A stretch of DNA of 64,000 nt from a virus (IMGVR_UViG_3300037755_001279:32001-96000); one strand, 5' to 3'. Counted from the stretch's first letter, positions 733-57,651 are shown. Notes: generated by a model not told the origin, from the letters alone. Numbers and translations are program-made.

Positions 733-1104
733 ATGGCGCGTGAAAAAGAAACCTTCGTCGCGCGCGTGCACCATCAGCGGTATGGCGGCACGCACGGTTA
801 CGACTTCGAGTCGCCGCCGAAGACGTCCGTGCAGTCAGCGATGGCGACGGTCGATGCGCAGTGCAAGGCGGGCAAGTACATCACCGTCAAGAGCAACTAC
901 ACGTCCAACGGCGATCACTGGCCAGGTCACCGCGGCCGCATCATGGCGACCTGTGAGCGCAAGGCGTGGTTCGTCGAGACGTTTCCACCGGGTGATCACG
1001 GCGATCCGAGCGGACGCTTGAAGGGCGCACGCGGGCGCTGCCCTGCCAACATCGGCCGCAAGCGCGCACCGGCCAGGCTGCGTCGCAAGCGTGGTGCACG
1101 ATGA
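733..1104 (+). CDS. Hypothetical protein with LKG motif and basic C-terminal tail
   Basis: ATG lies 7 nt after TGaTAGGGT. Ends RLKGARGRC...RLRRKRGAR. Confidence 0.7.
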   Translation: MAREKETFVARVHHQRYGGTHGYDFESPPKTSVQSAMATVDAQCKAGKYITVKSNYTSNGDHWPGHRGRIMATCERKAWFVETFPPGDHGDPSGRLKGARGRCPANIGRKRAPARLRRKRGAR

Positions 1105-1418
1105 GTGCGCCGACGCAGCAGCAGGTGGCCGAGGCCGCGGCGCGGTACTGCGCTACAGAATTCACGACGTTCACGTCGTGGTTCAGTTATGAGGACGAGC
1201 TGGCTCGCGAGCTGATGAAAGACGACCAGTTTCGCTGCGCAGTTGACTACGCCACCAAGCAGGTCATGACGATGATCAGCTACAACAAGACGATGTCCGT
1301 GACCGCCGCGCAGCACGGCGGCGGCGCGCGTGGAATAGCTGTCGTTGTCGGCCACATCGTCGGTGAGTGGCTCGCCGGCAAGACGACGACGATCGATCAG
1401 GAGTTGATGACGTGGTGA
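1101..1418 (+). CDS. Hypothetical protein
   Basis: ATGA/GTGA coupling to both neighbours; coding-like composition. Confidence 0.7.
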   Translation: MSAPTQQQVAEAAARYCATEFTTFTSWFSYEDELARELMKDDQFRCAVDYATKQVMTMISYNKTMSVTAAQHGGGARGIAVVVGHIVGEWLAGKTTTIDQELMTW

Positions 1419-2476
1419 CGTTCACCGACCTGCTGAGCGCAGCCAAGCGCGCGTTCCGTGCGCGCGACTGCGGTGCCGCCCGAGACGCCACGCGGCGTCT
1501 TTTGATCACCGCGCGGACGCCCAAGGAACGCGAGACCGTCATGCGGCTGCAGAACGCCGTGCGGCGCTGCAAGGTCCGGCCGTTGGCCGGGCCAACGCGG
1601 TCGTCGAAGCGTCGCCGGCGCGCAACGCGCCGTGGCCTCGGTGCGATCACGGTGACGTCGGATGCCATTGCCGACCGCATGGAAGCGATCAAAGAGAACC
1701 CGGAGCCGACACGGTTGGCAGCGCAACGCATTCAGACGATCGCCAATGAGCTTGCAGCCGCCGGTGACAGCTTCGGCGGAAAGGTGTTCATCTCTGACAT
1801 CGCGCGGCGGCTCGACTCATCGGTGAAGCGCCTGGCGCCGATCCTGCTTGCAGCCAATCGGAAGGGCTGGCTGTCGATGGCGCGTGCCGACCTGCGGGGT
1901 GCCATGGACCCCGTCAAGGTCGACGCAAGCGAGATCCGTTACCTGAACAGCGAGGTGCATTTCGTGACCGTGCCGCCGGAGATGATCAAGGACGTTCCTG
2001 CGCCGCCCGACCCGCCGCCGCGTCGCGCGGCTGCACGGCCAGCTGCGCGGCGTGCTGAAGCCGCCATCGAGCCGGGCAGCCTGACGCGGGCGCAGCTGAA
2101 GACGTTGTTTCAGATTCGTCGCAGCGTCGGCGACCACGAAAGCGCTGCGATCGTCGAGGCGGCGCTGTCGCCGAACGAGGCGACCGACCAATACGGCGAT
2201 CCGTTGTTCGACGCGGCGGGCGTGAAGATTACGCGAACGCAGGCGGTCAAGCAGGCGCGGACGATCTGGGCTCGCAACGCACCGCGCGCGTTGGAGTGGT
2301 ACAACGTGGCGGTGTCGAGGGCTGTGGCCGCTGACGTGGTCCCCGCTGAGTGGACGGCGATTGCCGATGCGATTCACCGTGAAACGCCGGCGGTCGACGT
2401 TGCGGACATGGCGGCCCGCGAGCAAGACGCACGAGCGCGCGCGCGCGGGGCGCCAGGCGCTAGGCGACGAAGATGA
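1415..2476 (+). CDS. Modular protein (helical module, Arg-rich linker, wHTH-like module)
   Basis: GTG overlaps the upstream stop. Two modules align by eye with ORFs at 56219-56617 and 49818-51572. Confidence 0.75.
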   Translation: MTFTDLLSAAKRAFRARDCGAARDATRRLLITARTPKERETVMRLQNAVRRCKVRPLAGPTRSSKRRRRATRRGLGAITVTSDAIADRMEAIKENPEPTRLAAQRIQTIANELAAAGDSFGGKVFISDIARRLDSSVKRLAPILLAANRKGWLSMARADLRGAMDPVKVDASEIRYLNSEVHFVTVPPEMIKDVPAPPDPPPRRAAARPAARRAEAAIEPGSLTRAQLKTLFQIRRSVGDHESAAIVEAALSPNEATDQYGDPLFDAAGVKITRTQAVKQARTIWARNAPRALEWYNVAVSRAVAADVVPAEWTAIADAIHRETPAVDVADMAAREQDARARARGAPGARRRR

Positions 2477-3074
2477 CGCCGAGGTTGCCGTTGACGCCGA
2501 CCACCTTGCCGAGGGTGTGGCCGCGCGCCTTGATAACTGCGCGCTCCAATGTCCCGGCCATCACAAGGAGCCGCACGCGGGTGCCTGTCGGCGGCTCGAC
2601 ATCGATCTGCCACAGCGTCGGCTCGGACATGTCGACGTAAAGGCCGTCGTACTGGTTCTGGAGGGTGCCGAACTGCGTCTGCAGCCGGCTGAGGCTGCGT
2701 AGCGCGGCCGCGGTCTCGGCTTGGGCGGCGGTCACCGCCGCATCAGCCGCCTGCAGCGCATCAGCCGTAGCGGCAGCGGCGGCCGCGGCGTCAGCCTGGG
2801 CCATCGCGGCAATGTCGGCCGTGGCCGTTTCCTGTGCCGCGAGTCGCTGCTGCAGCTCGATGATGGACTGGAAGGCCGCGGCAACAGCCTCTTCAGCGGC
2901 CGCGAGTGCCACGAGGCTGGGGTCAAGCGGCTCGGGTTCGGATGCGGGCGCCGCGTCCGCCGCCGCCGCGGCATCGTTGCCCGCACCATCTTCGGGCGCA
3001 CCGGCCGGGTCCGTTGACGTGGTCTCGGGCGATTCGGTGGATTTGGCGTCGGTGAGATCCCAATGCTCGGACAT
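2460..3074 (-). CDS. Hypothetical acidic, Ala-rich coiled-coil protein
   Basis: 204 aa ORF with an Ala/Gln/Glu helical core and a small beta-rich C-terminus. Confidence 0.7.
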   Translation of the reverse strand: MSEHWDLTDAKSTESPETTSTDPAGAPEDGAGNDAAAAADAAPASEPEPLDPSLVALAAAEEAVAAAFQSIIELQQRLAAQETATADIAAMAQADAAAAAAATADALQAADAAVTAAQAETAAALRSLSRLQTQFGTLQNQYDGLYVDMSEPTLWQIDVEPPTGTRVRLLVMAGTLERAVIKARGHTLGKVVGVNGNLGVIFVA

Positions 3075-3147
3075 GGTCGTACGGTACGCTGAGCCGCTCA
3101 GCGCGTCTAGGTGGATCGCGCATACGATCCGGTGCTAGCATCCCTAC

Positions 3148-3711
3148 GTGGCGAATACCCTCAAGTCTCAGCTGACGTACACGTTGGCCGCCGGCGCGAG
3201 CCTTGCTCTTCCCCACAACCTCTCGCTGAACGGCACAGGAGCCGAACCGGACTTTATCTCGATCGAGAACCCGGACTTCGACTACGTATCGTCGACGACC
3301 ACGACCGTCACCATGATCAACAACGGGTTGGTCTTGGCGTCGTGTCGAATCCTGTGCGAGCTGTGGCATACCATCGAGCGCGTCTTCGGCGATGGCACGC
3401 CGGCGCTGCCCGCTGGGCCGTTCATCAGCCGCGGCGTCAACATGTCCGGCGGCGCCACGACGCCCGACCAGGTTTTCACCTATACCTGCACGGGGGCTGA
3501 GGGTTCGGACTTCTTCATTGTGCTGCCCGTCGCGCGCCCGGATGACGACTACGTCCCGCAGGTTTCGTGCGGCGGCGTCACCGGCATCTTGACGTTCGAC
3601 ATGCCCGACCTCGTCGCGCTCGATCGTACCACGACGCAATTTCGCGTCGTCTCCTCGGCCGTCGTTCAGCTGGCTGACCGGCTCGACGTGACCGTCCAGC
3701 AGCGGAGCTGA
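3148..3711 (+). CDS. Putative virion structural protein (beta-rich)
   Basis: Directly upstream of the fibre gene; Thr/Val/Gly-rich; GTG 6 nt after TGcTAGCAT. Confidence 0.6.
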   Translation: MANTLKSQLTYTLAAGASLALPHNLSLNGTGAEPDFISIENPDFDYVSSTTTTVTMINNGLVLASCRILCELWHTIERVFGDGTPALPAGPFISRGVNMSGGATTPDQVFTYTCTGAEGSDFFIVLPVARPDDDYVPQVSCGGVTGILTFDMPDLVALDRTTTQFRVVSSAVVQLADRLDVTVQQRS

Positions 3712-3716: not shown

Positions 3717-5726
3717 ATGTCCAAGCCATTGACCACTGACGCGCTCGGCGCCGGATTTTCAGCTGACCCGTCGGCCGTTGGGTACGCCGCGCCGACGGGA
3801 TCGATCATCCCGCGGTTGGGAACGACCGAGATCTGGCAAAAGTTCGGCGCTGCTGCTACGGACTGGCAGCTGACCGGCGGCACGTCGCTCGACGGATTTA
3901 CCACGGTAGATAACACGGGCCTGGGCAACGCCGCCGGTGACTCAATCACGACCGGCGACCGGAACACGGTTATTGGCGTCAACGCCGGCACGGTGATCAC
4001 CACCGAGAACGACAACACTGCCGTAGGCAACAATGCGTTAGCAGCGAACGCTGCCGCTGGCAATACCGCGGTAGGTTCGGGCGCTGCGGATCTCAACACG
4101 AGCGCGACCGGTATCGTCGCTGTGGGCTTCAACGCGCTCGGTGCCAACCTGACCGGCGCGAACAACACTGCCATCGGTGTGAGTGCGCTACTGCTCGCGA
4201 CGGGCGCCGGTCACACGGCGGTCGGTGCCGGCGCGCTTGATGCGGTGACGACGAACACCAACTGCACGGCCGTTGGTCTCAATGCCCTCGGGCTCAATAC
4301 GGCCGCCAACAATACTGCTGTCGGAGCCGGCGCTGCGGACGCTGTTACCTCAGGCACAGGGCACACCGCCGTCGGAAGCGACGCCCTGGGTGCCATGTCG
4401 ACGGGCCTGGATGGCACCGCGGTCGGCTTCAACGCGCTCTTGCTGGCCACGGGCAACGGCAACACGGCGGTGGGCGCGCGTGCCGGCGACGCGATCTCGA
4501 CTGGCACGGCGCACACCGCGGTCGGCACCGATGCCCTGAGCGCGGTCACCACTAACAGCAACAGCACGGCGGTTGGAAACGGCGCGCTCCGGTTAGCGAC
4601 CGGCTCGCAAAATACGGCCGTCGGCGCGGCGGCCGGCGACGCAATCACAACGGGTGCGAGCAACGTCGCCGTGGGGTACAACGCCCTGGGCACGCTTAGC
4701 ACGAACGACGGCTGCACGGCGGTCGGCGAAAACGCGCTTGCTTCATGCACCGCCGCTGGCAACACGGCCGTCGGTCAGAGTGCTGGTGACTTGATCTCGA
4801 CCGGACAGCGGCACGTCGTCATGGGGCAGGACGCGCTCGGTTCCATGTCGACGAACAATGACTGCACGGCGATCGGATGGCAGTGTCTGCAGTCGGCTAG
4901 CGGTGGCAGCAACACGGCCGTTGGTGCAGCCGCACTACGAACGCTAACGTCGGGCACCGACTGTACAGCGATGGGACACAACGCGCTGGCGGTCAACACG
5001 GGCACCGGAAACACGGCCATCGGTTCAGCGTGCGCGGACGCAGTCACGACTGGCACCGGACATACGGCGATGGGGCACAATGCCCTCGGCACGATCAGTA
5101 GTGGCAGCAACTGTACGGCGATCGGGACCAGCGCGTTGCTCACCGCTACGGGCGGCGGCAACACGGCGGTCGGTAACACCGCCCTGGATGCCATCACCAC
5201 CGGCACGAACAACACCGGCATCGGCTTCGGTGTTGACGTCTCGGCGAACAACCGAACGGGCAGCATTGCCATCGGCATCAACACCGCCGGCACAGCAGCG
5301 AGCGCGACGGTCAACGACGGGCTCTTCTTTCATACGTCACTTGACGATCTTGCGCTTGCCGCGGCTGTCACCTACGACGCGGCGACGGGCCAGATGGGGC
5401 CTGTGACGTCGTCGGCGCGATGGAAAACCAACATCACCGATCTCGAACGCGGCGTCAGCGAAAAACTATGGCAGCTGCGCCCCGTGTCATACGACAAGGT
5501 GGTCGTGGAAGGAAAGCAGTCGGTGCCGCGGCAGTTCGGCCTCATCGCTGAAGAGGTGGCCGAAATCCTTCCTGAGATCGTCCCGCGGGATGGCCTTGGG
5601 CTGCCGTACTCGGTCGACTATAGCCGGCTGGTCGTCTTGGTGCTCACCGAGATGCGCCAGCTGCGTAATCGGGTCGCTGAGCTTGAAGCTCGGCTGGGTC
5701 TTGAGATCGGGCACGCGATCCGCTAA
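3717..5726 (+). CDS. Fibre/spike protein with ~14-aa (N/H/C)TAVG repeats and C-terminal intramolecular chaperone (Peptidase S74 type)
   Basis: Many NTAVGxxAL repeats, then SSARWKTNITDL...LRPVSY...FGLIAEEV...YSVDYSRL...RVAELEARL, typical of S74 autocleaving chaperones. Confidence 0.9.
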   Translation: MSKPLTTDALGAGFSADPSAVGYAAPTGSIIPRLGTTEIWQKFGAAATDWQLTGGTSLDGFTTVDNTGLGNAAGDSITTGDRNTVIGVNAGTVITTENDNTAVGNNALAANAAAGNTAVGSGAADLNTSATGIVAVGFNALGANLTGANNTAIGVSALLLATGAGHTAVGAGALDAVTTNTNCTAVGLNALGLNTAANNTAVGAGAADAVTSGTGHTAVGSDALGAMSTGLDGTAVGFNALLLATGNGNTAVGARAGDAISTGTAHTAVGTDALSAVTTNSNSTAVGNGALRLATGSQNTAVGAAAGDAITTGASNVAVGYNALGTLSTNDGCTAVGENALASCTAAGNTAVGQSAGDLISTGQRHVVMGQDALGSMSTNNDCTAIGWQCLQSASGGSNTAVGAAALRTLTSGTDCTAMGHNALAVNTGTGNTAIGSACADAVTTGTGHTAMGHNALGTISSGSNCTAIGTSALLTATGGGNTAVGNTALDAITTGTNNTGIGFGVDVSANNRTGSIAIGINTAGTAASATVNDGLFFHTSLDDLALAAAVTYDAATGQMGPVTSSARWKTNITDLERGVSEKLWQLRPVSYDKVVVEGKQSVPRQFGLIAEEVAEILPEIVPRDGLGLPYSVDYSRLVVLVLTEMRQLRNRVAELEARLGLEIGHAIR

Positions 5727-5784
5727 GCTCCGGGGGAGCCTTGGGCCTTGACCTGGGGCCCAACCCTCACACGGAGCACGACCC

Positions 5785-6255: not shown

Positions 6256-6268
6256 TGCGCCTGCTGGC

Positions 6269-6664
6269 CTAGCGCCGGCGTTTGGTCTTCGAAGCCGCCC
6301 GCTCGGGCGGCTTTTTGTGTTTGACCGGGACCTCGCTGAAGTGCCTGTGGAACGACGTGTGGTCGTACACGCCGCGGTGCACCCCTTCGGGGATGATCCA
6401 GTAGCCCGATTTCAGGCCGTACCCGCGCGATTGCACGTCGTCCCACCAATAGAATGAAAAGCCGTCGCGGTGTAGATTCATCACCTCTTGGTCGGCCTGC
6501 GCCCGTCGCATTCGATGCAATGTCGATTCGTTCAGGTAGTTGCACTCCGGCGGAGATGCCCACGTTTCATGAACGCGTGCGGGCCATGGTTTGACGTCGA
6601 CGATGAACTGCACCGCCTTGATGCGTGTCGTGACGTAGACGACGCGGCTCATTTCGGCAGCCAC
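6269..6664 (-). CDS. Hypothetical protein
   Basis: ORF coupled downstream of the glycosyltransferase. Confidence 0.6.
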   Translation of the reverse strand: MAAEMSRVVYVTTRIKAVQFIVDVKPWPARVHETWASPPECNYLNESTLHRMRRAQADQEVMNLHRDGFSFYWWDDVQSRGYGLKSGYWIIPEGVHRGVYDHTSFHRHFSEVPVKHKKPPERAASKTKRRR

Positions 6665-7464: not shown

Positions 7465-7470
7465 GTCGTT

Positions 7471-7514: not shown

Positions 7515-7525
7515 CGCGTCTGCGA

Positions 7526-9657: not shown

Positions 9658-9664
9658 TTTACAC

Positions 9665-12577: not shown

Positions 12578-15500
12578 ATGGCTATCGTCACCGCGTTTCA
12601 CTTCACCGCGCAAACCGGCGCGATCGACTACGCCGAACCCAAGGCGCCGTCCAATTTCTACCGGTACACCTTGCCGGCCGCGTGCCTTGGGCGCGTCAAA
12701 CTGGCCATCGATGCCGCCGCCGTCGGGTCGGGTGGCCTGGAGTACCCCGCCGACTTCCTCGTGTGGCTTGCCGCGAACGATGCGCCGCGCGCGGCGCTCA
12801 CGTGCCGCCACTGCGCGAAGCCGTGCCCTCCACAGCACGTGACGTGCGACGGTAGCGAGTGCCAGGAAGCCGAGTACCACGCCAACGCTGAGCGCGCTGC
12901 AATGCGGCGCCGCACGCGGCGCTAGGAGCCAAGCCATGCCGATCCGTCAATACATCACTGACATCGAGGCCCTGTGGGACAACGGCCGCGATCTCCACCA
13001 AGTCGTCGACGACTACATCGACCAACTGCAGGACGAGGAGCGCGCAGAGATCTTGGCGCTGTACGGTGCACGGGACCTGAGCGAGCCGACGCCAGAGGCG
13101 TTCGACAAGCGCGGACCGTTCGACAAGACGCCGCCGCCGCTGCAGCAGGGGTGGGACGCGATGCAGCGCTGGTGGGAACGTGTGCAACGGCAGCTCGCCT
13201 TCAACGCGCTCTATCAAGCGGCGTGCGCCGTCTTGGACGGCACCATGACCCCCGAGGAAGCAGGTTTGCCGTGACCACCGCACCCACCCCCGAAGCGTCC
13301 GAAGAGCTTTACATCCCCGCCGCCCGCGACGCGGTGATCGCCTACTTCGGGCGCCCCGCGCACGGCGGCGCTGGGCTGCGCACCCACTGCAACACCTGCA
13401 TCGCCGCCGGCCACGCGTTGCACGGCTACGACGGCCGCGCGGAGCCCGACAAGGTGCACGGCGATCTGCTGACAGCGCGGTCCGACGGTCGCGACGGCGA
13501 CATGTTGCCGGACACCGAGGCGTGCGACGTCTGCGACGTGCTGCTCTCGACGATCTCGGCACAGTGCCAGGCTGAGCACGATGCACAACAAGCGCGCTGG
13601 GCACGCATCGCACGACCGACCGTGCTGATCGAGTACGGCATCCCGGCGTTCATCCGCTGCCGGGTGTACTGAGGAGTCTATCCATGTCACGCAAGCAACA
13701 CACTGAGAGCCGGAGCCGGCCCTACTTCACCCTCTGTGGCCGCGAGATGCCGCAGGATCAAGATCCGTGGTCGCCGGACGCGGAAAGCTGTGAGGCGTGC
13801 GCGCGCGTTGTGCGCCTTGCCGATGCCCGACGCAATCAGCGTGCGCCGCGTACCTTCGGCGGCGATCGTTAGCCCACCCCATAACCAACCACCGCTAAGG
13901 AGCAACACGACCATGGAACCGTCGACCACTACCGCCGCCACTACCACCGCCGCCACCGCCGCTTCGGACGACGGAACGCCGCTCGTGCAAGCCGCGCTGC
14001 GCGCCTTGCCGTTGCTGGTCCAGCTTGGTGATTACATTGGCAACGGCCCCGTCGACTCCAGCAACCCGCAGTCCCTCGGTGAGCGCTGTGACGTTGTCGA
14101 GGCGTTGCGCGCGGCGCTCGGCGCTCTCGGCGTGTCCGAGTCGGACATGGCGCCCACGAAGGGGCGCCGCGCGTAGGCCAATTTTGCCAGAGTGAATTTC
14201 GCAAACGCGAGCGACGTCTGATACAACAGTCGGGCATTTCAAACCCCCGGCAGGAAGGCAGGGCCCCGTGGCCTACCAGTACACCACGACTGAGACCGAG
14301 GCCGAGCACGCCGAGCGCATCGGCGTCGATGAGACCAGCGAAGAGACCCGCTGGTGCGACACTTGCAGCGTGTGGGAGGCGGCCGAGCTGGTGTGCGAAA
14401 AGGCGGTGGCCGCCGCGCTTGCTGCCGAGGAAGCGGCGATCCTGGCCAACCGCCCGCCCCCGGCGCGCATCGTGGCGCGGATGCGGCGGCAGACGCTCAT
14501 CTGTTCGTGCGGCCACCGTACGTGCCGCATGATCAACAGGTACGGCCTGACCGTCCCGACGTTCCGCGGTGACATCGAGCCGATCCCGTCGCAGTACGCG
14601 CGGGACCGGCGCGCGCTGGAGATCAAGGCCGGGGGTGGGTTGTGATCGAGATACCCTCGGCGGAAGCCAGCCGTCGCCTGGCGATCATAATGCAGCGCGC
14701 CCCGCAACTGTACGACGCGGTCCTGGTGGACGCGCACGGCGCCATCGCCGCCGTGTGCTGCGTGTGGTGGGTGGGCGACGTCATCGAGGATGCCGGCGAG
14801 AGCTGGACCGGCTATGTGCTGATGCCTGGGGGTGGGTTGTGACGCGAACCCGCAACCCCGAGCACATTGCCGGCCGCAAGGTGCCCGGTTGGGGCGCCCG
14901 GCGCATCGCTCAGATTCCGCCCTGCGCTGCCAGCATGGGCTGTCTCTGTGCAGGCCACGCGCGCGGCAATGCTGCGACGGCGCCGTGTGACACCAGCGAG
15001 ATCGCACCGACCGCGTCAACGCGGGCAACCCGCCCGCCCACCATGACCGACTTCGAGGCCTGGATGCGCGACATCTATGCCAAGTCGCGCAAGATCGACC
15101 CTGACGAAGAACGTGACTGGAACGCGATGGCGCTCGGGTTCATGGTCGCGCGCGGCGTCGACTACCGCGTAGCTGTCGATTGGGAGCTATGCTCGGCGTT
15201 CACCTGCGGCGATCGGCCGCGCGCCGAAGCGGCGACGGCGATGTCAGAGCGCGTGTGGCTCGCGCATGATTGGGCCGACCGAGTTGGGTACCGTGCCGCA
15301 TACCGTACGGCACTCGTCGCAGCCGCGGACGCCACCGAACCACCGGCCGGTATCGACGTCGCTCTGTGGGTGCGCTCACTCGATGATGCAGCGTGGGAGG
15401 CGGCGCGGGTAGCGGTACCGGTTGAGCTGCCCAAGAAACGCAACGCACGGTCAGCGGCTGCGCGCGCGCATCTTGACGCCGTCGCGGCTGCCGGCCATAC

Positions 15501-27615: not shown

Positions 27616-28848
27616 ATGACCACGGCATCCATCGACAGCATCTACTTGAATCTGCACCAAACGGGGGTCGCCATCGCCGCGTGTGCACGCGCAGGCCGCG
27701 TCGCGCTGGTGTTTGGTCCGCCGGGCATCGCCAAGACGACGCTCGCGCGCGCCGTCACACCGGTCGTTGCGCGGCACCTCGGGTACAACACCACAAGCCC
27801 GGACGATCCGATGTACCCGGCCATCGACTGCGTACTGTCGAACCGCGACGCCGTAGACATCGGCGGGTACCCCGTGACGTTCCCCGACGGCGAAGTCCGC
27901 CTCCAGCTGTTCGGCACGCTGCGTCAGGCCGAGCAACGTCCAGGCTTGCTCATCCTCGACGAGTTGACCACCTGCACGCAGGCCGTCCAGGGTCCGGCCA
28001 TGCGCCTGGTGCTCGAACGGTACGCCGGCGAGAATCCGCTGCACAAGGACACACGCATCGTGTGCCTCGCCAACAGGCCTGATCAAGCGCCTGGCGGCAT
28101 CCAGCTGACGGCGACGCTGATCAATCGTGTGATCATCATCAACTGTCAGCCGACGGTGACCGAGATCAGCGATTACTTCTGTGCCGCCCCCGCGGCGCGC
28201 CTTGACACCATGGTCGAGCTGCCGTCGGACGCTGTGTGGCAGGCTCGCCGGCAGCAGCTCATGGCGACGGCAGGGGTGATCTTCACGCAGCGCCCCGATT
28301 TGCTGTGTTTCGATCCGCCGCCGGCGGCGATCAGCGACGGAGAATCCTTCGCCAGCCCCCGCGCCTGGGAGATTTGCTGTGACGTCATCTCGACGTTGCC
28401 CAGCATGAGCGGCGACGATTCCATCGTACAGGCGATTGCGGTCGGCACTCTCGGCGCTGCGCGCGCGTTCGCGTTCCTGTCGATCCTCAAGGCACGTGAG
28501 CACTTGCCGTCGGTCGACGACGTGATCAAGTCCCCGGACACCGCCTTGGTGCCCGACGAGACCAAGATGATCGACGACGGCCAGGGTGGCCGCAAGCAGA
28601 TTGGCCGCGACGTCACCTTCGCGGCCATCCCGCTGGTGATCGAGGCGTCCCGCATCGATAGCTGGGCGGCCTGGGTGTACATCGAGCGGTTGCCCTCCGA
28701 GATCGTCGCTGCTGTGGCCAAGGGCATCACGTCGAACATCTACGCGCCTGCTGCGTCACCTTGGTTGGCACGTGGGCAACGAATCATGCTCGATACCGTG
28801 CGGCAGCTCGGCGGCTTGCCCGCGTCACAGGTCAAAAAGGCCAGCTGA
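27616..28848 (+). CDS. MoxR-like AAA+ ATPase
   Basis: Walker A GPPGIAKT, Walker B LLILDE, sensor CLAN, LINR arginine finger, FASPRAWE. Confidence 0.9.
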   Translation: MTTASIDSIYLNLHQTGVAIAACARAGRVALVFGPPGIAKTTLARAVTPVVARHLGYNTTSPDDPMYPAIDCVLSNRDAVDIGGYPVTFPDGEVRLQLFGTLRQAEQRPGLLILDELTTCTQAVQGPAMRLVLERYAGENPLHKDTRIVCLANRPDQAPGGIQLTATLINRVIIINCQPTVTEISDYFCAAPAARLDTMVELPSDAVWQARRQQLMATAGVIFTQRPDLLCFDPPPAAISDGESFASPRAWEICCDVISTLPSMSGDDSIVQAIAVGTLGAARAFAFLSILKAREHLPSVDDVIKSPDTALVPDETKMIDDGQGGRKQIGRDVTFAAIPLVIEASRIDSWAAWVYIERLPSEIVAAVAKGITSNIYAPAASPWLARGQRIMLDTVRQLGGLPASQVKKAS

Positions 28849-30023
28849 TGCCGCCGTCTGTCATCCCACGCTTGACGCAGCTGAAGCACAACTTGTGCTG
28901 GATCTCACCGTACCTTGCGCCGGCAATCGCGGCGCTCAAAATTATCGAGACCGATCGGTTGCCAGACAAGACGGCGGCTGTCGACAGCCACGGGCGCATG
29001 TTCATCGACCCGCAGTGGAGCACCAAACAGTCCGACGAGGAAATTCGATTCACGATCCTGCACGAATGCCTGCACCTGCTGCTTGGACATCACCATCGTC
29101 GTGGATCGCGGCACTCCGAGATCTGGAACATCGCTGCCGACCTCGTCATCAATGACGCCATCAACGCCTTGAACCTGCGCACGTCAGCACCGGCCGGCGT
29201 GCTCAATCGTGCTGTGCACACACCCGACATCGCACCCAACTTGACCGTCGAAGAGGTCTACGAGCTGTTGATGGCGAGCCACGTCAAGATCATCGCCGGT
29301 CCGGGTCCCGGCAGCGGTTGCGGTGTCATCGATGCCGATGCTGATGCGGGCGACGGCGTGTCGCCGAGTCAGTGGCGCGACCTCAAGCACACCGTTGAAA
29401 CGCTCGTGCGCGGTGCATCGGACGGCACGCGCGCGCTAGTACCGCTCTTGACCGTTCCACCGAGCCGCGTGCGTTGGGCCGCGCTCGTCCGTCAGCTGGC
29501 TTCGACGGCAGTGAGTCAAGCGGGGCGCGACGTCACGACATGGGCGCGGCGCTCGCGACGGTCGCCGTCGAACGTCAACTTGCCGGGCGCGCGGACCAAC
29601 GTGGTCAAGCTGGCTATCGTCATCGATGCCAGCGGTTCGATGTCCGACGACGAAGTGTCTGTGTGCGTGGCCGAAGCGTACGCTGCCGTCATGGCGGCCG
29701 GCGTTGAAGCCTTCCTTGTGGTGCATGATCACGTAGTCCAAAGCACGGCGTGGATCAAGCCTGGAAGTGGCGTCGGCGCCATCGTCAAGCACATCAAGGG
29801 CCGCGGTGGGACGGCGTTCACGCCGGCGTACGCTGCCGTGGCAGAGACTCGCGCCAAGTTCGCGGCCATCACGCATTTTACCGACGGGTATCCTTGTGAG
29901 CTGTGGCCGAACAGGCCGCGCAACTGCGCGCGGGGCATCATCGCGCTGACGCCGGAGGGCCGGCAAGCCGTGATGCCAGGCGGCTGGCGCGTGGTGCCGA
30001 TCGAAGTGCCGGGGAGGGTATAA
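28848..30023 (+). CDS. DUF2201-type metallopeptidase + vWA domain protein
   Basis: TAAVD, LHECLHLLLGH, WNIAADLVIN; MIDAS DASGSM, GRGGTAF, FTDG. Confidence 0.9.
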   Translation: MPPSVIPRLTQLKHNLCWISPYLAPAIAALKIIETDRLPDKTAAVDSHGRMFIDPQWSTKQSDEEIRFTILHECLHLLLGHHHRRGSRHSEIWNIAADLVINDAINALNLRTSAPAGVLNRAVHTPDIAPNLTVEEVYELLMASHVKIIAGPGPGSGCGVIDADADAGDGVSPSQWRDLKHTVETLVRGASDGTRALVPLLTVPPSRVRWAALVRQLASTAVSQAGRDVTTWARRSRRSPSNVNLPGARTNVVKLAIVIDASGSMSDDEVSVCVAEAYAAVMAAGVEAFLVVHDHVVQSTAWIKPGSGVGAIVKHIKGRGGTAFTPAYAAVAETRAKFAAITHFTDGYPCELWPNRPRNCARGIIALTPEGRQAVMPGGWRVVPIEVPGRV

Positions 30024-48987: not shown

Positions 48988-49134
48988 TCACCGCCGCCGG
49001 CGCCGTCGCCGGCTACCTTGCAAGCGCGGCGAATACGCCGACGCGTTGCGGGCCGCACGGCCGCGCGGGGCCTTCTTGCACTTGCGGCGCTTGGTGGGGT
49101 GCTTGAGTTTGCCGTATCGACAGGAAGTTGCCAT
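48988..49134 (-). CDS. 48-aa protamine-like basic protein (not in ORF track)
   Basis: MATSCRYGKLKHPTKRRKCKKAPRGRAARNASAYSPRLQGSRRRRRRR; ATG 6 nt after TGaTAGGCT. Confidence 0.7.
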   Translation of the reverse strand: MATSCRYGKLKHPTKRRKCKKAPRGRAARNASAYSPRLQGSRRRRRRR

Positions 49135-49573: not shown

Positions 49574-49821
49574 GGCGCAGCCTGCCTTGCAGCGTCTCGG
49601 CGCTGTTGTTCGGCTTCGGCAGCGCGTAAGACGCTTGCCATGGCATCGATGTTGCCGCCGACCACGCTCACGGTTTGTTGCAGATCTAGATCAAAATGCT
49701 TGTACAGCCAGCGCACGGACCAGTGCACGCGTTCACCGTCGAATCCATTCGCGTCGTACCCGGGCAGGTCAGGAGGCGCCGCGCCAGTGGGCAGGAACAC
49801 AGGGTATGGCAGGGGCGTCAT
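49570..49821 (-). CDS. Hypothetical protein
   Basis: Coupled ORF ending VLRAAEAEQQRR. Confidence 0.6.
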   Translation of the reverse strand: MTPLPYPVFLPTGAAPPDLPGYDANGFDGERVHWSVRWLYKHFDLDLQQTVSVVGGNIDAMASVLRAAEAEQQRRDAARQAAP

Positions 49822-51572
49822 GACACCACGAGCATGTTCACGGACCGCCCGGCGTGCTCAACGGTCGACGCGTCGACTCGTGCGGCGTCGTCACCGGCGT
49901 CGAGATCACGCCGTTGCAGCTCGACCCATCCCTTGCGTTGAAAGAGCAAGAGCATCGGCGCCAGGCGCTTGAGCGGGATGCCGACCTCATCGGCAAGGTC
50001 CGCCAGGTAAACTTTCTTGGTGAAAGCGCCGTGGCTCTTGCCGCGTGCGGCGAGCGCTGCCGCCGCGGCGTTCACCCTGTCCGCCGTCGCCTTGAGCAGC
50101 GGAACGCGGTCCGGGTCAGAGTCGTCGGTTGGCACATCGACGGTGACCGTGCCAAGGGCGAGCGCCTCGGCATCCAACCGTCGGCGCGCTGCGTCGACAG
50201 GATCCTGCGGTTCGGCTGCCTGCAACCGCGCGATCAGCTTGTCGGCGACCGCCGCCGGGATCGTTCGATCGCGCTCGTGCTCGACGTCGGCCGCCAACGT
50301 TGCCAAGCGATTTTGCCAACCCACGGCCGGCTTACGTTTGTTGAGTACGTCGAGGACGCGCTTGACCAGCTTCTGGCCTCGGTCGTGCACGAGGCCGCCG
50401 TCGATAAGCGTCGGGCCGCGGCCGCGCACCATCACCCAGCTGTTCGGCTTGCGCTCTGGTGCACTGAAGCCGTACGGCGCCATGACTTTGTAGAGCGCGT
50501 CGCTGAGGTCATAGACCTTGCTCTCCTGGGTCCACTTCAACGGCTGGCCGCGGACGCACTCACGTACGATCACGTCGTTGGACTCATCGTAGCGCTTGAA
50601 CCGTGCGACGTGTTCGCGCGCACCCGGGATCTTGTTGGCCTGCTCGAAGAATGCAGCTTCGAGCGCCAGCGAACCGCGGCCAGGTCGCCCGACCTTGTAG
50701 GCGGTGCCCCCATCACAGAACACAATGCCCTCGGCACCGGCGCCCATGTACTCCAACTCGCCGGACGCCCCGGCCTTACCGGCACGTTCAACGGCACCAG
50801 GCAGCTCATCGGCTAGAACATCACGATCACGCTGCGGCACGGTATCATCGCGCAGGGTCGCCGGCGCGCCCTGTAACGGTCGCCGGGTTGCCACCCGGCC
50901 CAAGCCATTGAGCTGTCGGCGACGGCGGATCACCCAGGCCACGCCGGCGAGCGCGACCGCTGCAACCGCCGCCGCCGCCGGAATGCTCCAACGCACGCCG
51001 GTGACCGCAGGCATGAGACCGGCGCGCACGCGGTCTCGTGCCTGCAACCAGGCGTCAGCCAGCCGCTTGCCCTGGACCGCGGCACCGGCCGTGCTGAAAT
51101 GCACGCCGTCACCTGACCGGCCCTGCAAATCGGCCGTGAGCGGGCGCCAGTCGATGACGCGCGAAGCCCCGAACACGGCGACCAGGGTGGTGTAAACCTG
51201 CGGCGTCTTTGACTGCAGGTCGACGCGCGCGAAGCTCGGGGGCCCGACGGCCCACAGCTCTGCGCTGTGAAACGCTGCCGCGATCCGAGCGAACGCCACC
51301 TGGTCGGCGCTCGCGCTCATCCCGAGGTCGTTGGTCCCAAGCATCACGATGACGATGTCGGGTTGCCAGGCGGCTTCCGTCGTCGCCACGGCAGCGCCGT
51401 CCTCACCGTTCTTGCCGGACCAGAAATTGACGGCGCTGCGTGAGACCTTGCCGTTGACGCGGACGGTTGCACCGGCGGCGCGCAGCAGCGCCGCCAGTAC
51501 GCCACCGGGGGTGTTCGCCCCGGCCGACAGCGAGTCGCCGAGGATGAGGATTTTCTTGCCGCGGATGCTCAT
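49818..51572 (-). CDS. Multidomain protein: SGNH/GDSL hydrolase, TM helix, kinase-like domain, wHTH-like module
   Basis: ILGDSL, LGTND, DGVHF; TM AAAAVAAVALAGVAWVI; MGAGAEGIVF...AYKVG...E...ERKPNS...LIDGG; C-module KVYLADLA...KRLAPMLL...RKGW. Confidence 0.8.
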   Translation of the reverse strand: MSIRGKKILILGDSLSAGANTPGGVLAALLRAAGATVRVNGKVSRSAVNFWSGKNGEDGAAVATTEAAWQPDIVIVMLGTNDLGMSASADQVAFARIAAAFHSAELWAVGPPSFARVDLQSKTPQVYTTLVAVFGASRVIDWRPLTADLQGRSGDGVHFSTAGAAVQGKRLADAWLQARDRVRAGLMPAVTGVRWSIPAAAAVAAVALAGVAWVIRRRRQLNGLGRVATRRPLQGAPATLRDDTVPQRDRDVLADELPGAVERAGKAGASGELEYMGAGAEGIVFCDGGTAYKVGRPGRGSLALEAAFFEQANKIPGAREHVARFKRYDESNDVIVRECVRGQPLKWTQESKVYDLSDALYKVMAPYGFSAPERKPNSWVMVRGRGPTLIDGGLVHDRGQKLVKRVLDVLNKRKPAVGWQNRLATLAADVEHERDRTIPAAVADKLIARLQAAEPQDPVDAARRRLDAEALALGTVTVDVPTDDSDPDRVPLLKATADRVNAAAAALAARGKSHGAFTKKVYLADLADEVGIPLKRLAPMLLLFQRKGWVELQRRDLDAGDDAARVDASTVEHAGRSVNMLVVS

Positions 51573-51634
51573 GAGGAAAGCCGGCCTGTCAAGCGCCATC
51601 CTATCATGACGGACCGACGTGGTAGGGTAGATCG

Positions 51635-52744: not shown

Positions 52745-53398
52745 TCAGTACACCGTCGTTTTGTAGAGACCGCGCAGGAAGATCCGCACCGACATACGGC
52801 AGCCGACGTGCGCGGTCGTGATGCGCAGCGCCGACACGGCAGCTACGCACTGCGGCGTGACAAGCGCCTCGAAGCCCAATTGCTGACGCACCTCGATCGG
52901 CAACACGAACAGCTGGCCGGTCTTCGGCGCGTCGGGGTCCATGTCAGACGGTGCGCCGGGCGCCTGGTATTTGGCGTCAGGCGGCAATGTTCGTAGCAAC
53001 TCGGACAGCGGCCACTCGGCACGCAGCTTCATGTTGTATTTGAACTGAACGCTGGTGGTCGCGAACCACGCTTGCGCAGCGTCACTTACGATCACCTCGC
53101 GTGGTGCCACGACAGCGGCGCGCCAGCCGTACATGATAAAATCGTGGTCTTGCGGTAGCCCACTGTACCCCGGCCGAGGCAAATTGGTGTCAGCATTGGT
53201 GGCAGAGCGCACCGGGTTTGATCCTGGAACGTACTGCGACCGTCCGACACTGAACGGATCGATCACGTTGAGCTGCCCGTTGAAATCGAACGTGCCCCAC
53301 AACTCGGTGTCACAATAGTCGTCGATGCGTACCACGCGCCCGCTGGGGAACGTCATCGTCGAAACGCCGGGCGCAACGCCTACGAAGCTGTGTGCCAT
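52745..53398 (-). CDS. Putative single jelly-roll capsid-like protein
   Basis: 217 aa, beta-rich: D.ELWGT...F...TNADTNLP..G..GLP.DH.F.MYG...LPIEVRQQLGF...VRIFLRGLYK. Pattern recalled from jelly-roll capsid proteins of tailless prokaryotic viruses; unverified. Confidence 0.5.
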   Translation of the reverse strand: MAHSFVGVAPGVSTMTFPSGRVVRIDDYCDTELWGTFDFNGQLNVIDPFSVGRSQYVPGSNPVRSATNADTNLPRPGYSGLPQDHDFIMYGWRAAVVAPREVIVSDAAQAWFATTSVQFKYNMKLRAEWPLSELLRTLPPDAKYQAPGAPSDMDPDAPKTGQLFVLPIEVRQQLGFEALVTPQCVAAVSALRITTAHVGCRMSVRIFLRGLYKTTVY

Positions 53399-53447
53399 GT
53401 TGTTGAGCCCGGTGGTTTTGGTTGAAGGCAGCGCCACGCGAAGCCGC

Positions 53448-54298: not shown

Positions 54299-55231
54299 AT
54301 GAGCACGTACGACGTCATCTGGTACTGGCGTGGCCCTGGCCAGCTCAAGGAGCGGCCGCGCATCGAAGGTCTGACAGCGCGCGTTGCCGCCCGCGCTGCT
54401 GTTCGTGCGGTGCGTGACGGGGGTGACGCCGCGTTCGTCGTGCCTGCCGGCGCTAGCATCGCGAACCCCGCGATGCACTGCAAGGTCAGCCTGCGTACAC
54501 GACGCCCGACCGCGCGCGCTCGCCGGACGTTCGTGGCCTGCACGCCAACGGCGAGCTTCAAGAAGTTGCTGCAGACCCCGCGCGCAAAGCCGAAGCGCCG
54601 GCGGAGGGCCCGCTGATGCCACGGCGTCAACGCAGCCCGATCCGCGTCGGGAATTGCTTCCCGTGGCCGTTCGAACCGCGGCGCCGCGATGAGCCCCGTA
54701 TGGTGTGCCGATGGATCTGTGACCGTGCGCCGCGCGCTGCGGAATTCGTCCAGCGCGACGACCCGCGCCGCACGGCGATCCTGCACCCATCAACGAAGCG
54801 GAAGGGTTGGCAGGTGTCATTCTTCGACCAGGACGGCGCCGTCAGCGACGTGATCCGCGCTGACTGCAGCGCGGCGCTCTACGATGCCGGCATCACACCG
54901 GGGGCGTGGCGACTGCGCGCGGTCGAGCCACGGCGGTGAGCCCGTCGGAGGGGTGTGCTATCAGCACGGAATGCCGGCCCACATCATCGTCATGTTCGCC
55001 GAGGGTGACTTCCACCGCGCGACTAGTTGCGACAGCCCCGAAGAGGCCCGCGGCTTCGTCGCCGGCTTCACCGCCGGTGCCGATGCCTACGGCGCCGGCT
55101 CAGCCGCTGCGTACATCATCCCCGAGGATCAGCACGAGATGAAGGCGCACGAATCGCCGAGCGCCATCACGACGGCGCACGCCGCCGTGCGGCGGCTCGA
55201 AGCGGCGCTTGCGGCGCCAGCGACTAGCTGA
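54299..55231 (+). other. Three small genes (54299-54616 and 54616-54939, both basic; 54971-55231)
   Basis: First and third are preceded by GTCGG-N10 promoters (54266, 54944). Confidence 0.65.
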
Positions 55232-55301: not shown

Positions 55302-55372
55302 TGGGGTGTGGTCTAGTGGCACGACGGCAGGCTCTGACCCTGCAGACGGTGGTTCGACTCCACCCACCCCAT
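55302..55372 (+). tRNA. tRNA-Gln(CTG)
   Basis: Acceptor TGGGGTG/CACCCCA; anticodon arm GCAGG-CTCTGAC-CCTGC; T arm GGTGG-TTCGACT-CCACC. Confidence 0.88.
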
Positions 55373-55382
55373 CTAGCCGTGC

Positions 55383-55455
55383 TGGCGCGCGGTCAGGATG
55401 GCACTGACGCCGGCCTTTGAAGCCGGAGACGCGGGTTCGAGTCCCGAGGCGCCTA
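55383..55455 (+). tRNA. tRNA-Gln(TTG), degenerate
   Basis: Anticodon arm CCGGC-CTTTGAA-GCCGG; GGTTCGAGTCCC T arm; mismatches at 1:72, 7:66 and the first T-stem pair. Confidence 0.65.
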
Positions 55456-55935
55456 CCGCCGTTTGCCGGTCATTTGTTCAACGCGACGCCGGCTGTCCGC
55501 CTGGTTCACCCGCCGCGCTTCGGCCGCGGTCATCAAACGGAAGTCCGCGTTCGGCGCGTCGCGCCGAAACACCGCGAGCCATTCAGCTGCCGTGTCGTCG
55601 GTGACGTCACGCTCGTGCACCCACCGCGGGCTGGCCGGGTTGGTGTCGTAGCGCCAAAGCCCGCGCGTCGCTGACACGCCCCCTTGTAACACACGAGACC
55701 GACGCCGGCGCCGAACCCCCGCCAACCCGCTCGTGCACCGTTTCGCCGAGCACTTCACCAACACCTCGGGCTCACGTCCACCGCACACCTGCGTCACCGT
55801 CGCCGCCGGATGCCCGATGCCGCGGGCGGCGCGCTCGGCTGCGCGCTGCGCCGTCACCAGGCCCTTGCGCGTGGCCGCGAACGTGTCGATGTCGCGGCCG
55901 CGGACGGCGAGGACGAGCTTGCAGGATTTGGTCAC
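55453..55935 (-). CDS. Two-module protein with LAG-VRRRRRSR-VLQG linker
   Basis: GTG 55935 after GAGG; internal Arg-rich linker. Confidence 0.65.
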   Translation of the reverse strand: MTKSCKLVLAVRGRDIDTFAATRKGLVTAQRAAERAARGIGHPAATVTQVCGGREPEVLVKCSAKRCTSGLAGVRRRRRSRVLQGGVSATRGLWRYDTNPASPRWVHERDVTDDTAAEWLAVFRRDAPNADFRLMTAAEARRVNQADSRRRVEQMTGKRR

Positions 55936-55942: not shown

Positions 55943-56200
55943 TCAGCACCGCACCTTCCAGCCGACGTGCAGCGGGCTCTGCCAGTGCTTTTCCGCTTCG
56001 GCGCGCGTTGCGAGCCGTGCGCGCTGCGCCGAGCCGCCGGCACCACGCATGAGCTTCTTGCCCCGACCGCCGCCCGGCTGCACGTGGACGGTGCCGGTCC
56101 GCGTGTCCGTGAACGCGTAGAGCGTCCGTGAATCGCCGCCGACCCAGCCACGGCGCGCGCTGTACTGCGGCAGCGGCGCCTTGCGGATGCACTTTGCCAT
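55943..56200 (-). CDS. Small basic protein
   Basis: ATG 7 nt after TAGGCT. Confidence 0.65.
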   Translation of the reverse strand: MAKCIRKAPLPQYSARRGWVGGDSRTLYAFTDTRTGTVHVQPGGGRGKKLMRGAGGSAQRARLATRAEAEKHWQSPLHVGWKVRC

Positions 56201-56218
56201 GGTCGGTAGCCTACACCA

Positions 56219-56617
56219 TCACCGTTGCCGGCGTCGACGCCCACGGCCCAGGTCAGGCTGACGCCGCTCGCAGACCTGCACCGCGTGCTGCAACTTGAGG
56301 ATCGCCCGGCGCTGCGTCGCCGTCAGCGCGCGACCACGCGCCATCTGCTGCACGATGTACTTGGCGTCATCGCAGTCTTTGCGACGAAACGCCAGGCGGA
56401 GGTCACGCAGCTGCCAGCCGAAGTCGTTTTTCGGGTGCCCCGCGATGCCGGCGGGGACTACTCGAACGCTGATGCGGGAAGGATCGACCTTGGACAGACG
56501 GTCAGCGACCTTTTGTGCGTCATCCATGTTGGTGAAGACTCGGTCGTCTCCATCGGCATCGGTGATGAAATCGGTGCGGCCGGTGGTGTGCCGTTTCTGG
56601 AGCTTGAACCCTGCCAC
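56219..56617 (-). CDS. Two-module protein ending DLG-RGRRRRQR
   Basis: Second module AFRRKDC...LKLQHAVQVC matches the N-terminus of 1415-2476. Confidence 0.7.
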   Translation of the reverse strand: MAGFKLQKRHTTGRTDFITDADGDDRVFTNMDDAQKVADRLSKVDPSRISVRVVPAGIAGHPKNDFGWQLRDLRLAFRRKDCDDAKYIVQQMARGRALTATQRRAILKLQHAVQVCERRQPDLGRGRRRRQR

Positions 56618-56639
56618 GGTGCCCTCATTTCGGTAGGCA

Positions 56640-56894
56640 TCAGCGCCTTCGCCTCTTGCCGCATCCGCCAAATTCCTTAGCGTCGATTGCCGCGATCAGT
56701 TGACGATCGATGGCCTGTAGATCTCGTAAGCCATGCTTACGTAGATCTCGATCCAACCTCTTCCCGCCAGTGGCGATTTGAACCTGGATGAGTGCTTGCC
56801 GCCGACGAAGATCCTTGAGTGGCTTCTTCGCCAGCGCACAGACAACCTGCTGCACTTGAGCAGGCGTCATCCTTGATGGACGCGGCAAGCCCAT
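56640..56894 (-). CDS. Small basic protein ending FGG-CGKRRRR
   Basis: Start overlaps the upstream stop. Confidence 0.6.
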   Translation of the reverse strand: MGLPRPSRMTPAQVQQVVCALAKKPLKDLRRRQALIQVQIATGGKRLDRDLRKHGLRDLQAIDRQLIAAIDAKEFGGCGKRRRR

Positions 56895-57046
56895 CAGCGC
56901 CGCCGGCGGGCGCGCTTCACGCCCTGCAGTGGCCCACAGGCCTTCAGGTAGTTGGCCAGCGCAGCCGGGCCGCGGTCATGCGCCCGTGCGGCAGCCTTGC
57001 GGCTGCAACGATTCGGACGGGAACGTGTACGTCGGCGCCATCCCAT
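56894..57046 (-). CDS. 50-aa protamine-like protein (not in ORF track)
   Basis: MGWRRRTRSRPNRCSRKAAARAHDRGPAALANYLKACGPLQGVKRARRRR; ATG 6 nt after TGaTAGGCT. Confidence 0.7.
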   Translation of the reverse strand: MGWRRRTRSRPNRCSRKAAARAHDRGPAALANYLKACGPLQGVKRARRRR

Positions 57047-57189
57047 GGTGGCAGCCTATCACGGCGGCGCCGCGGTCGGCTAGCGCCGACGACGCTTGCG
57101 GCGACCCGCCAGCTGGCCATCGGTCAGCTTGCAGCGCTTCAACACCAGCACCGTGCCCGGCGCCGTGATGGCTCTGGGCAGCGCCAGGC

Positions 57190-57498
57190 CTAGCCCTCGA
57201 TGTTGCGCTTGGCCAGCCAAAGACCGGCCGCGACACCGGCAATGGCTCCGACGACCTTGGCGACGCCGCTGAAGCTCGGCAGCAGCGGCGCGCCCAGGGC
57301 ACCTGACAGCCCGGGGGCGGTCATGTAGCCGGCCGGGCTGCCGGTCATCTGGAATTCATCCCCGAAGGGGATGGGACTCCAGCCGAACGCGCTGAACCCG
57401 CCACCGCCCGACGGGAAGGTCGGGAAATAGCGGATCTTTTGGTTCGGGTTGTTGGGCGCCGAGTGATGGTCCTGGCGCCACCGGGTGGCGGACACCAT
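57190..57498 (-). CDS. Small membrane protein with LSG/LG motifs
   Basis: GLSGALGAP, then TM VVGAIAGVAAGLWLA and KR. Confidence 0.7.
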   Translation of the reverse strand: MVSATRWRQDHHSAPNNPNQKIRYFPTFPSGGGGFSAFGWSPIPFGDEFQMTGSPAGYMTAPGLSGALGAPLLPSFSGVAKVVGAIAGVAAGLWLAKRNIEG

Positions 57499-57519
57499 GG
57501 TGGGTGGGTCCTTCCCGGC

Positions 57520-57651
57520 TCAGCGCCGGCCGCGGCGGCGGATGCACTTGCCGCGCTTGCCCATCTTCCAGCCGGCGCCGCACGAGGCGGAGCCCAGGCC
57601 ACGACGGCGACGACGGCGACGAGAACGACCCAGGAGATTGATGCTTGCCAT
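57520..57651 (-). CDS. 43-aa protamine-like protein (not in ORF track)
   Basis: MASINLLGRSRRRRRRRGLGSASCGAGWKMGKRGKCIRRRGRR. Confidence 0.7.
   Translation of the reverse strand: MASINLLGRSRRRRRRRGLGSASCGAGWKMGKRGKCIRRRGRR

Follow-up and report, generated by a model that had tools for sequence, protein, structure and literature searches.

A glycine-hinged arginine tail shared by small proteins of a large virus, a possible portable DNA-binding tag

We analysed a 64,000-nucleotide stretch of viral DNA (the window), positions 32001-96000 of one IMG/VR virus record (G000; 126,509 bp, CheckV completeness 98%, GC 66%, range 63-70%), in which unrelated proteins encoded among structural-looking genes share a short basic C-terminal tag. 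Coordinates are those of the window unless genome positions are stated. The tag consists of a hydrophobic residue (Φ), one further residue (mostly Ala), Gly, zero to two small residues and 4-10 Arg/Lys running up to the stop codon, and it occurs on at least ten unrelated soluble proteins, mostly tiny (30-130 amino acids, aa), in this virus and its close relatives. In a few longer proteins, an internal Arg run is bracketed by Φ-x-G at the junctions of modules that are separate in relatives. The tag is enriched and conserved, its genes cluster in two blocks, three of the tagged microproteins are encoded by real genes, and a conserved Cys-His-Asp enzyme is encoded nearby. From this we infer, at somewhat less than an even chance, that the tag is a portable DNA-binding tail joined to its carriers through a Gly hinge; the tagged proteins would then bind DNA and might enter the virion, and the hinge might be a site of cleavage.

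The statistical evidence was obtained with a set of 220 genes from a self-trained codon-usage call. When an Arg tail was defined as at least three Arg and at least four Arg/Lys in the last six residues, 10 of the 220 proteins carried one at the C-terminus against 0.58 expected (maximum 3 in 500 shuffles), and none carried one at the N-terminus. A related record, G001 (123.9 kb, with terminal repeats), in which 85 of the 220 proteins have a match at a median identity of 50% and gene order is conserved, has Arg tails on 12 of 212 proteins, whereas two ordinary high-GC phages given the same treatment have none among 144 (0/91 and 0/53; Fisher p=0.0016). The bare [LF]xG motif is at chance level (316 observed vs 305.5±16.4 in 200 shuffles), and the rate at which orthologs retain generic LxG sites is close to expectation (9/14). 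The enrichment proposed in a preliminary description of this DNA therefore does not hold for LxG as such, but it does hold for LxG combined with an Arg tail, which exceeds composition in the shuffles, the phage controls and G001. The motif precedes the C-terminal run in 6 of 14 cases in G000 when four conserved small open reading frames (ORFs) are added, against a background of 9.8% (p=0.0013), and in 10 of 15 cases on the called genes of G001 alone (p=2.3e-7), several of which have no G000 ortholog. Internal runs are flanked by the motif on both sides in 4 of 24 cases in G000, with 0.31 expected, and in 2 of 27 in G001 (p=0.054). The most frequent form is Φ-A-G-A-Arg(n). The codons under the motif vary between copies, which points to conservation at the protein level and rules out DNA repeats as the source of the Arg tails; Shine-Dalgarno (SD) sequences for the next gene were likewise ruled out, the codons being CGN and not AGG.

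The distribution of the motif is equally uneven. All 11 motif-bearing runs of G000 fall in two blocks, together 19.5% of the genome, in which the ORFans with the highest conservation and the tailspike-like gene are also located. The block from 10 to 46 kb holds six Arg runs, none with the motif, as had been observed for this early array before. Across G000 and G001, 25 of 25 motif-bearing runs lie on soluble segments and none follows a predicted transmembrane (TM) helix. Arg runs placed after a TM helix form a separate class, comprising the internal run of the 49818 protein, 3-719, 46463 and most tails of distant relatives.

All 12 strings cited in the preliminary description, which took them for candidate cleavage sites in virion core polyproteins, are present in the DNA at the positions given there, though not all of them adjoin an Arg tail. 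Under a strict rule (Φ-x-G or Φ-G either placed so that its Gly precedes an Arg run by 1-3 residues, or starting at most four residues after the run), six cited loci in called or conserved genes carry the motif, namely 48988, 49818, 55453, 56219, 56894 and 57520; it lies only downstream of the run, after a TM helix, at 49818, and on both sides of it at 55453 and 57520. Two loci (733 and 1415/1412) fit loosely, one (56640) is an unvalidated ORF, and three (46463, 53940 and 57190) have a plain LxG or LG with no Arg run adjacent.

The strongest cases are microproteins. Five Arg-tailed ORFs of 43-84 aa have a codon-usage score of about zero and are missing from the public gene call, and since 49 of 1687 ORFs in non-coding frames (2.9%) also end in Arg tails, a tail alone is no proof that a small ORF is a gene. 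Three of them nevertheless have orthologs in G001 that differ mostly at third codon positions, so that they encode proteins under purifying selection. The first is an Arg/Lys/Cys-rich protein of 48 aa (48988..49134, minus strand; codon score ~0) ending in LQG-S-R7, whose G001 ortholog is 77% identical and ends in MAG-A-R7 (9, 7 and 19 differences at codon positions one, two and three). The second, of 50 aa (56894..57046, minus strand), ends in GPLQG-V-KRARRRR and is 75% identical to its ortholog (8, 12 and 25 differences); another homolog, P0199, has 69% identity and carries GPPAG...RRARRK at its end. The third, of 43 aa (57520..57651, minus strand), contains LLG-RSR7-GLG, C-x11-C and an Arg tail, lies directly upstream of a conserved TM protein (57190-57498) and is 88% identical to its ortholog (3, 3 and 10 differences). 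Judged by this conservation, all three are real genes that standard gene calling missed. A fourth conserved pair, with members of 31 and 30 aa, is encoded outside the window. The microproteins hold conserved Cys pairs (C-x11-13-C), and two thioredoxin-domain proteins are found among the 150 longest proteins of the virus (best E 5.5e-31); disulfide chemistry of the tagged proteins may thus matter.

The larger proteins place the motif at domain boundaries. At 733..1104 (plus strand), a protein of 123 aa, present in both our own and the public gene call and belonging to no Pfam family, has LKG followed by a basic C-terminal tail of ~30 residues; its G001 ortholog is 39% identical and retains 'LKGAR' and the Arg tail. 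A modular protein of 354 aa (1412..2476, plus strand) is built from module A (a two-Cys unit), PLAG, KRRRR, GLG, module B (a probable winged helix), a C-terminal domain and a final RRRR, with PLAG six residues before KRRRR and GLG five after it. At 49818..51599 (minus strand), a protein of 593 aa combines a GDSL esterase (Pfam Lipase_GDSL_2), a TM helix, RRRR, LNGLG, a middle domain, ALG and module B. Its TM-RRR-L.G arrangement is retained in 4 of 4 aligned relatives, and its LNG and LQG after the TM helix appear in the G001 ortholog as LAG and VQG. The middle domain (residues ~280-440) separates the TM helix from module B. It contains a Gly-rich loop with AYKV after it, is conserved in P0020 and looks kinase-like by eye; no Pfam match backs a kinase reading. 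A protein of 160 aa at 55453..55935 (minus strand), which is in the public gene call and has no G001 counterpart, contains the internal cassette LAG-V-RRRRRSR-V-LQG. Lastly, a protein of 132 aa at 56219..56617 (minus strand; 150 aa in the public gene call) consists of an N-terminal domain, module A, DLG and RGRRRRQR, and aligns to standalone module-A proteins with the same terminal tag.

Modules A and B are two undescribed domains, and their homologs show how the motif travels. A word-indexed search with the 1412 protein returned only itself, while an exhaustive HMMER search gave 246 matches, in which A and B occur as separate small proteins. Standalone module-A proteins are 64-75 aa long with the tag at the end. 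All seven module-A sequences have Φ-x-G or LG after the second invariant Cys, with the Arg run immediately behind it in six; the seventh has an inserted domain, and its tag returns at the true C-terminus after FAG. Together with the G001 microprotein orthologs and P0199 (as PAG), these homologs bear out the expectation that motif and tail would be conserved. Module B is shared by the 1412 and 49818 proteins (blastp E 5.7e-13) and is widespread, with 246 cluster representatives in public data for module B alone; its probable assignment as a winged helix draws on look-alikes and leads, with no PDB sequence match below E 0.015 and no Pfam match below E 0.0019. In G001, the two modules are separate genes: a protein ends in '...RRRR stop', and 4 nt later a separate module-B gene begins with 'M-RG-VRPY'. 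Fused homologs read 'Arg run-LxG-VxPY' at the same point, exactly where standalone module-B proteins begin, and other module-B versions have a TM helix or a short basic leader ahead of the junction. The "polyproteins" of the preliminary description amount to no more than a multidomain architecture whose junctions are points of gene fission and fusion. Scans of IMG/VR with one protein at a time (the 49818 and 56219 proteins and a 710-aa protein) returned no relatives; alignment-based scans did find relatives.

The DNA-binding reading can be put as follows. Most likely, the Arg run would be an unstructured tail that binds polyanions and would keep its carriers on the viral DNA, for condensation or co-packaging; in TM-anchored forms it would tether DNA to a membrane, and Φ-x-G would serve as the hinge at the end of the folded part. 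The winged-helix look-alikes of module B, and the position of L-L-G in the enzyme model described below, speak for it. Several observations weigh against this reading. The motif was defined after G000 had been seen, and the G001 set is partly orthologous to it. The called genes of G000 alone give the motif at 3 of 10 tails (p=0.067), and tails without it number 8 of 14 in G000 and 6 of 17 in G001. Because P0199 has PAG, the hydrophobic position is loose; in two module-B homologs, P0008 and P0009, both LxG and the Arg run are missing ahead of the module; and in 18 distant relatives the tiny proteins were not detected and the association of motif and tail is weak (9/38, p=0.04). DNA binding and location in the virion, moreover, are deduced rather than observed.

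A plainer explanation, which we regard as unlikely but as a serious contender, would be that the tails are generic nucleic-acid- or membrane-binding extensions of non-structural proteins such as regulators or host-takeover factors, neither packaged nor cut, with the Gly acting as a helix cap or flexible hinge. Gly is well known in the Schellman helix cap, and in the predicted model of the enzyme described below L-L-G marks the end of a helix, behind which comes a basic linker of low confidence. The loose hydrophobic position, the many tails without the motif and the resemblance of module B to winged-helix DNA binders of the regulator type are also in keeping with it. The tagged genes, however, cluster in two blocks with structural-looking genes and are absent from 10-46 kb and from the replication block, the microproteins are far better conserved than the genome median (75-88% vs 50%), and the tag recurs across two genomes on nine or more unrelated folds while two ordinary high-GC phages have none, all of which argues against this explanation.

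A further possibility, to which we give a slightly lower probability, is that the tagged proteins are virion core precursors and that a viral cysteine protease cuts at Φ-x-G, freeing Arg peptides or separating modules in the manner of the adenovirus protease (AVP). The protease for which the preliminary description advised a search of the rest of the genome does not appear in the form named there: a six-frame Pfam search of the whole genome with PF00770 and PF02902 (adenain and Ulp1) gave no match at E<=1, a result compatible with a very divergent member. What the genome does contain is a gene for a TM-anchored enzyme at genome 17061-17810, ~15 kb upstream of the window, in which Cys170, His203 and Asp222 are invariant among 29 aligned family sequences. 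Its predicted model is confident (predicted local distance difference test score, pLDDT, 88.6) and has a transglutaminase/papain-like core fold (Foldseek probability 1.0, E 2e-4 to 9e-4). The best solved matches are the putative proteases 3kd4 (Z 12.6, root-mean-square deviation 3.1, 138 residues aligned) and 3isr (Z 11.4), followed by transglutaminases (Z ~9-10), LapG (Z 9.0-9.3) and pseudomurein isopeptidases (Z 9.0-9.4, PeiP 9.4). The Pfam family PF01841 (Transglut_core) matches below threshold (17.5 bits vs a cut-off of 23, E 0.005). Relatives of the enzyme number 43; several are on contigs of 85-132 kb, and six have a precomputed PF01841 match. A separate protein search with the enzyme as query gave no match. 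In 27 of 29 family members, Φ-x-G or Φ-G follows a basic pair behind the enzyme's own TM helix, and in the model this helix ends exactly at L-L-G, with the basic linker having the lowest pLDDT; as far as the model goes, this placement would suit a plain hinge as well as a cleavage site. These features make the enzyme a plausible protease candidate for the motif.

Cleavage would also accord with the bracketing of Arg runs on both sides, which resembles an excisable peptide, and with gene fission and fusion falling exactly at the Arg run-LxG junction. The site of LapG, PAAG/AAAG, is similar to the commonest form Φ-A-G-A (PMC6890996), and a precedent is pVIc, the basic C-terminal peptide cut from adenovirus pVI (PMC4246237). 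On the other side, transglutaminases and the isopeptidase PeiP fit the fold nearly as well, so the enzyme may instead cross-link proteins or cut cell wall; its score stays under the Pfam cut-off; the order is ΦxG-Rn in tails but Rn-ΦxG at junctions; and the adenovirus-type consensus invoked in the preliminary description fits only 1 of 16 motif-bearing tails. Beside the enzyme gene and divergent from it, genome 14913-16995 (window -17087 to -15005) encodes a row of two to four large proteins, each with a TM helix and Arg at its C-terminus, and the same block of tail-anchored membrane proteins is seen in distant relatives (L026-L029, ~4000-9700).

Using the enzyme gene as an anchor, we collected 18 further IMG/VR contigs of 30-221 kb, in which 38 of 559 genes end in Arg runs, mostly large proteins with a C-terminal TM helix. 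No match to Terminase_6N or Phage_capsid (PF05065) was found in 19 related records. G000 itself has no Pfam match to the HK97 capsid, Terminase_6N, the prohead proteases S77/S78 or PM2 P2_N in a search with five models (PF04586, PF03420, PF05065, PF03237 and PF18628). A broader Pfam/PHROG scan of the 150 longest of the 220 proteins gave no terminase, portal, capsid or protease among the best 25 of 40 Pfam and the best 25 of 76 PHROG families, and families beyond these could include weak matches. One candidate for a shell protein belongs to a pair of paralogous beta-rich proteins, of 236 aa (genome 20821-21531) and 230 aa (52745-53437, minus strand), which are 29% identical (E 1e-19). The 236-aa protein is the most conserved in the genome (90% identical to G001) and has weak atlas leads, as leads only, to the PM2 P2 and PRD1 P3 capsid families (score 0.77-0.78); its predicted model, from four sequences, has a pLDDT of 37. 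A far-reaching scenario, which we consider improbable, would be a lineage of prokaryotic viruses, with genomes of ~80-220 kb and without recognisable HK97 capsid, terminase or prohead protease, in which protamine-like Arg/Cys microproteins and Arg-tagged core proteins serve to pack the DNA and are matured by a membrane-anchored transglutaminase-fold cysteine protease cutting at Φ-x-Gly.

We think it quite improbable that the tag is instead a capsid-interior targeting peptide that binds a shell protein rather than DNA, as the encapsulin loading peptide or the basic C-terminus of phage scaffolding proteins would suggest. A short, portable tag at the extreme C-terminus of unrelated cargo is what such a peptide looks like, and LTVGSLRR is similar (PMC13268814), but no HK97-fold shell gene was detected in the genome or 19 relatives (one capsid family, PF05065, having been searched), known loading peptides are much less basic than runs of 6-10 Arg, and the same runs are also found inside proteins and behind TM helices. 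An origin of the pattern in GC-rich composition, in spurious ORFs or in a signal at the level of DNA or translation (stop-start coupling, for example) is largely refuted and very improbable, for although Arg tails end 2.9% of non-coding-frame ORFs, the small ORFs score ~0 in codon usage, several stops overlap the next start as TGATG and two ORFs are unvalidated, the shuffles, the phage controls, the third-position changes of orthologs and the differing motif codons argue for selection at the protein level.

Those two unvalidated ORFs lie among the minus-strand microprotein genes. One, of 84 aa (56640..56894), ends in FGG-CG-KRRRR; it has a codon score of -7.8 and a GC content at third codon positions of 0.56, and is the sole open frame there. 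The other, of 46 aa (57080..57220), ends in LAG-RRKRRRR and has a codon score of 0.6; it is not among the strings cited in the preliminary description. Neither has a G001 counterpart or is present in the public gene call. Arg tails without the motif were found on a protein of 131 aa at 6269..6664 (minus strand; KRRR, no G001 counterpart), on one of 115 aa in the 'early' block at 12578..12925 (plus strand; RRRTRR) and on one of 105 aa at 54299..54616 (plus strand; KRRRRAR, no true G001 counterpart). A Pfam search with ten cited or neighbouring proteins gave no significant family. In the same region, a TA..GCT hexamer (TGTAGGCT / TGATAGGCT) occurs on the minus strand at 56200-56215 and 57050-57075, where it precedes 55943-56200 and 56894-57046 at a distance of 6-7 nt from their ATG; it resembles a -10 box for leaderless transcripts. 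A tRNA-Met(CAT) at 48484-48558 (minus strand) adjoins the 48-aa microprotein gene, and of two tRNA-Gln genes (CTG and TTG) at 55302-55373 and 55383-55457 (plus strand), the second is abutted by the 3' end of the 55453 gene.

Other identifiable genes of G000 encode a tailspike-like protein with an S74 chaperone domain, a tyrosine integrase, ThyX, a SNF2 helicase, methyltransferases and PolA with an N-terminal UDG domain; near-identity searches with G000 among named phages gave no match. The host is probably bacterial, as suggested by a proteome that is not acidic and by SD-like tetramers upstream of 93 of the 220 genes; the former also rules out a haloarchaeal host. The tyrosine integrase (43391-44341, plus strand; Pfam E 5e-18), whose G001 counterpart is 48% identical, suggests that the virus is temperate. 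Within the window, a single peptidase-like gene, at 28848..30023 (plus strand), encodes a putative DUF2201_N/SprT-like metallopeptidase with a VWA domain (Pfam DUF2201_N E 6e-17; 54% identical in G001), and nothing ties it to the motif. It is paired with a MoxR-like AAA ATPase (27616-30023, plus strand, for the pair; both 53-54% identical in G001). Outside the window, a protein of 702 aa at genome 118095-120203 (window 86095-88203) matches phrog_1735 (E 4e-231) and is found in 543 phage records of many kinds, where it is mostly annotated 'hypothetical protein'.

Tailed phages are thought to package naked DNA. Condensing proteins rich in Arg, and cores matured by a protease, are hallmarks of viruses of eukaryotes. 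To our knowledge, such a core-and-maturation strategy has so far been described only from adenoviruses and other large eukaryotic double-stranded DNA (dsDNA) viruses. If our scenario were true, a strategy of this kind would have been built from unrelated parts in a prokaryotic virus. A conserved, portable tag on many unrelated proteins would point to a different organisation of a prokaryotic viral genome, especially alongside protamine-like proteins, tail-anchored membrane proteins, two thioredoxin-domain genes and a Cys-His-Asp enzyme, and it would offer a short, testable handle for DNA binding or cargo loading. The analysis also yields three conserved microproteins missed by standard gene calling and two undescribed domains, A and B.

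Among known systems, the adenovirus core is close in outline. Besides pVI, AVP also matures pVII and pre-Mu. The protease and its substrates meet on the DNA, cleavage follows the consensus (M/I/L)xGG-x or (M/I/L)xGx-G, and pVIc (GVQSLKRRRCF) is cut from the C-terminus of pVI (PMC4246237). The proteins described here are similarly small and very basic, and, as in pVIc, a basic stretch comes just after a hydrophobic-x-Gly-type site, which in adenovirus is the cleavage site (PMC4246237). Unlike adenovirus, the present virus gives no match to adenain (C5) or Ulp1 (C48), has a probably bacterial host and a candidate enzyme that is TM-anchored with a predicted transglutaminase fold, and has a single C-terminal tail among the 16 motif-bearing ones of G000 and G001 that fits the adenain consensus; cleavage is known in adenovirus, whereas here it is a possibility. 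That candidate resembles LapG-type enzymes (bacterial transglutaminase-like cysteine proteinases, BTLCP), which cut within PAAG/AAAG, a small-residue-Gly site (PMC6890996); the two share a fold class and a Cys-His-Asp triad. LapG, however, is periplasmic, depends on calcium and cuts adhesins, whereas the viral enzyme has a TM anchor and is more positively charged behind that helix, and the two are 14-17% identical in sequence.

Tags that load or hold cargo offer two further parallels. The Myxococcus xanthus encapsulin peptide LTVGSLRR pairs hydrophobic-x-Gly with terminal Arg (PMC13268814) and, like the viral tag, is portable and sits at the extreme C-terminus; the viral Arg runs differ in being much longer and in having the motif also internally, and an HK97-fold shell was not detected with PF05065 in the genome and 19 relatives. 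In the hepatitis B virus core, an Arg-rich C-terminal extension holds nucleic acid inside the capsid (PMC7412469, PMC3447754), but there the tail belongs to the capsid protein itself, is regulated by phosphorylation and lacks a Φ-x-Gly prefix, with no sequence relation to the present tails. Among the papers listed in literature searches, which did not cover subscription journals, there was no phage example of protamine-like condensing proteins and no prior account of the tag. In large eukaryotic dsDNA viruses, protamine-like proteins of the baculovirus P6.9 type condense the genome for encapsidation (PMC6163548). Like them, the microproteins kept between G000 and G001 (43, 48, 50 and 31 aa) are smaller than 15 kDa and Arg-rich, some with paired Cys; unlike them, they carry the Arg run as a C-terminal tag with a conserved Gly hinge, which is found on larger modular proteins as well.

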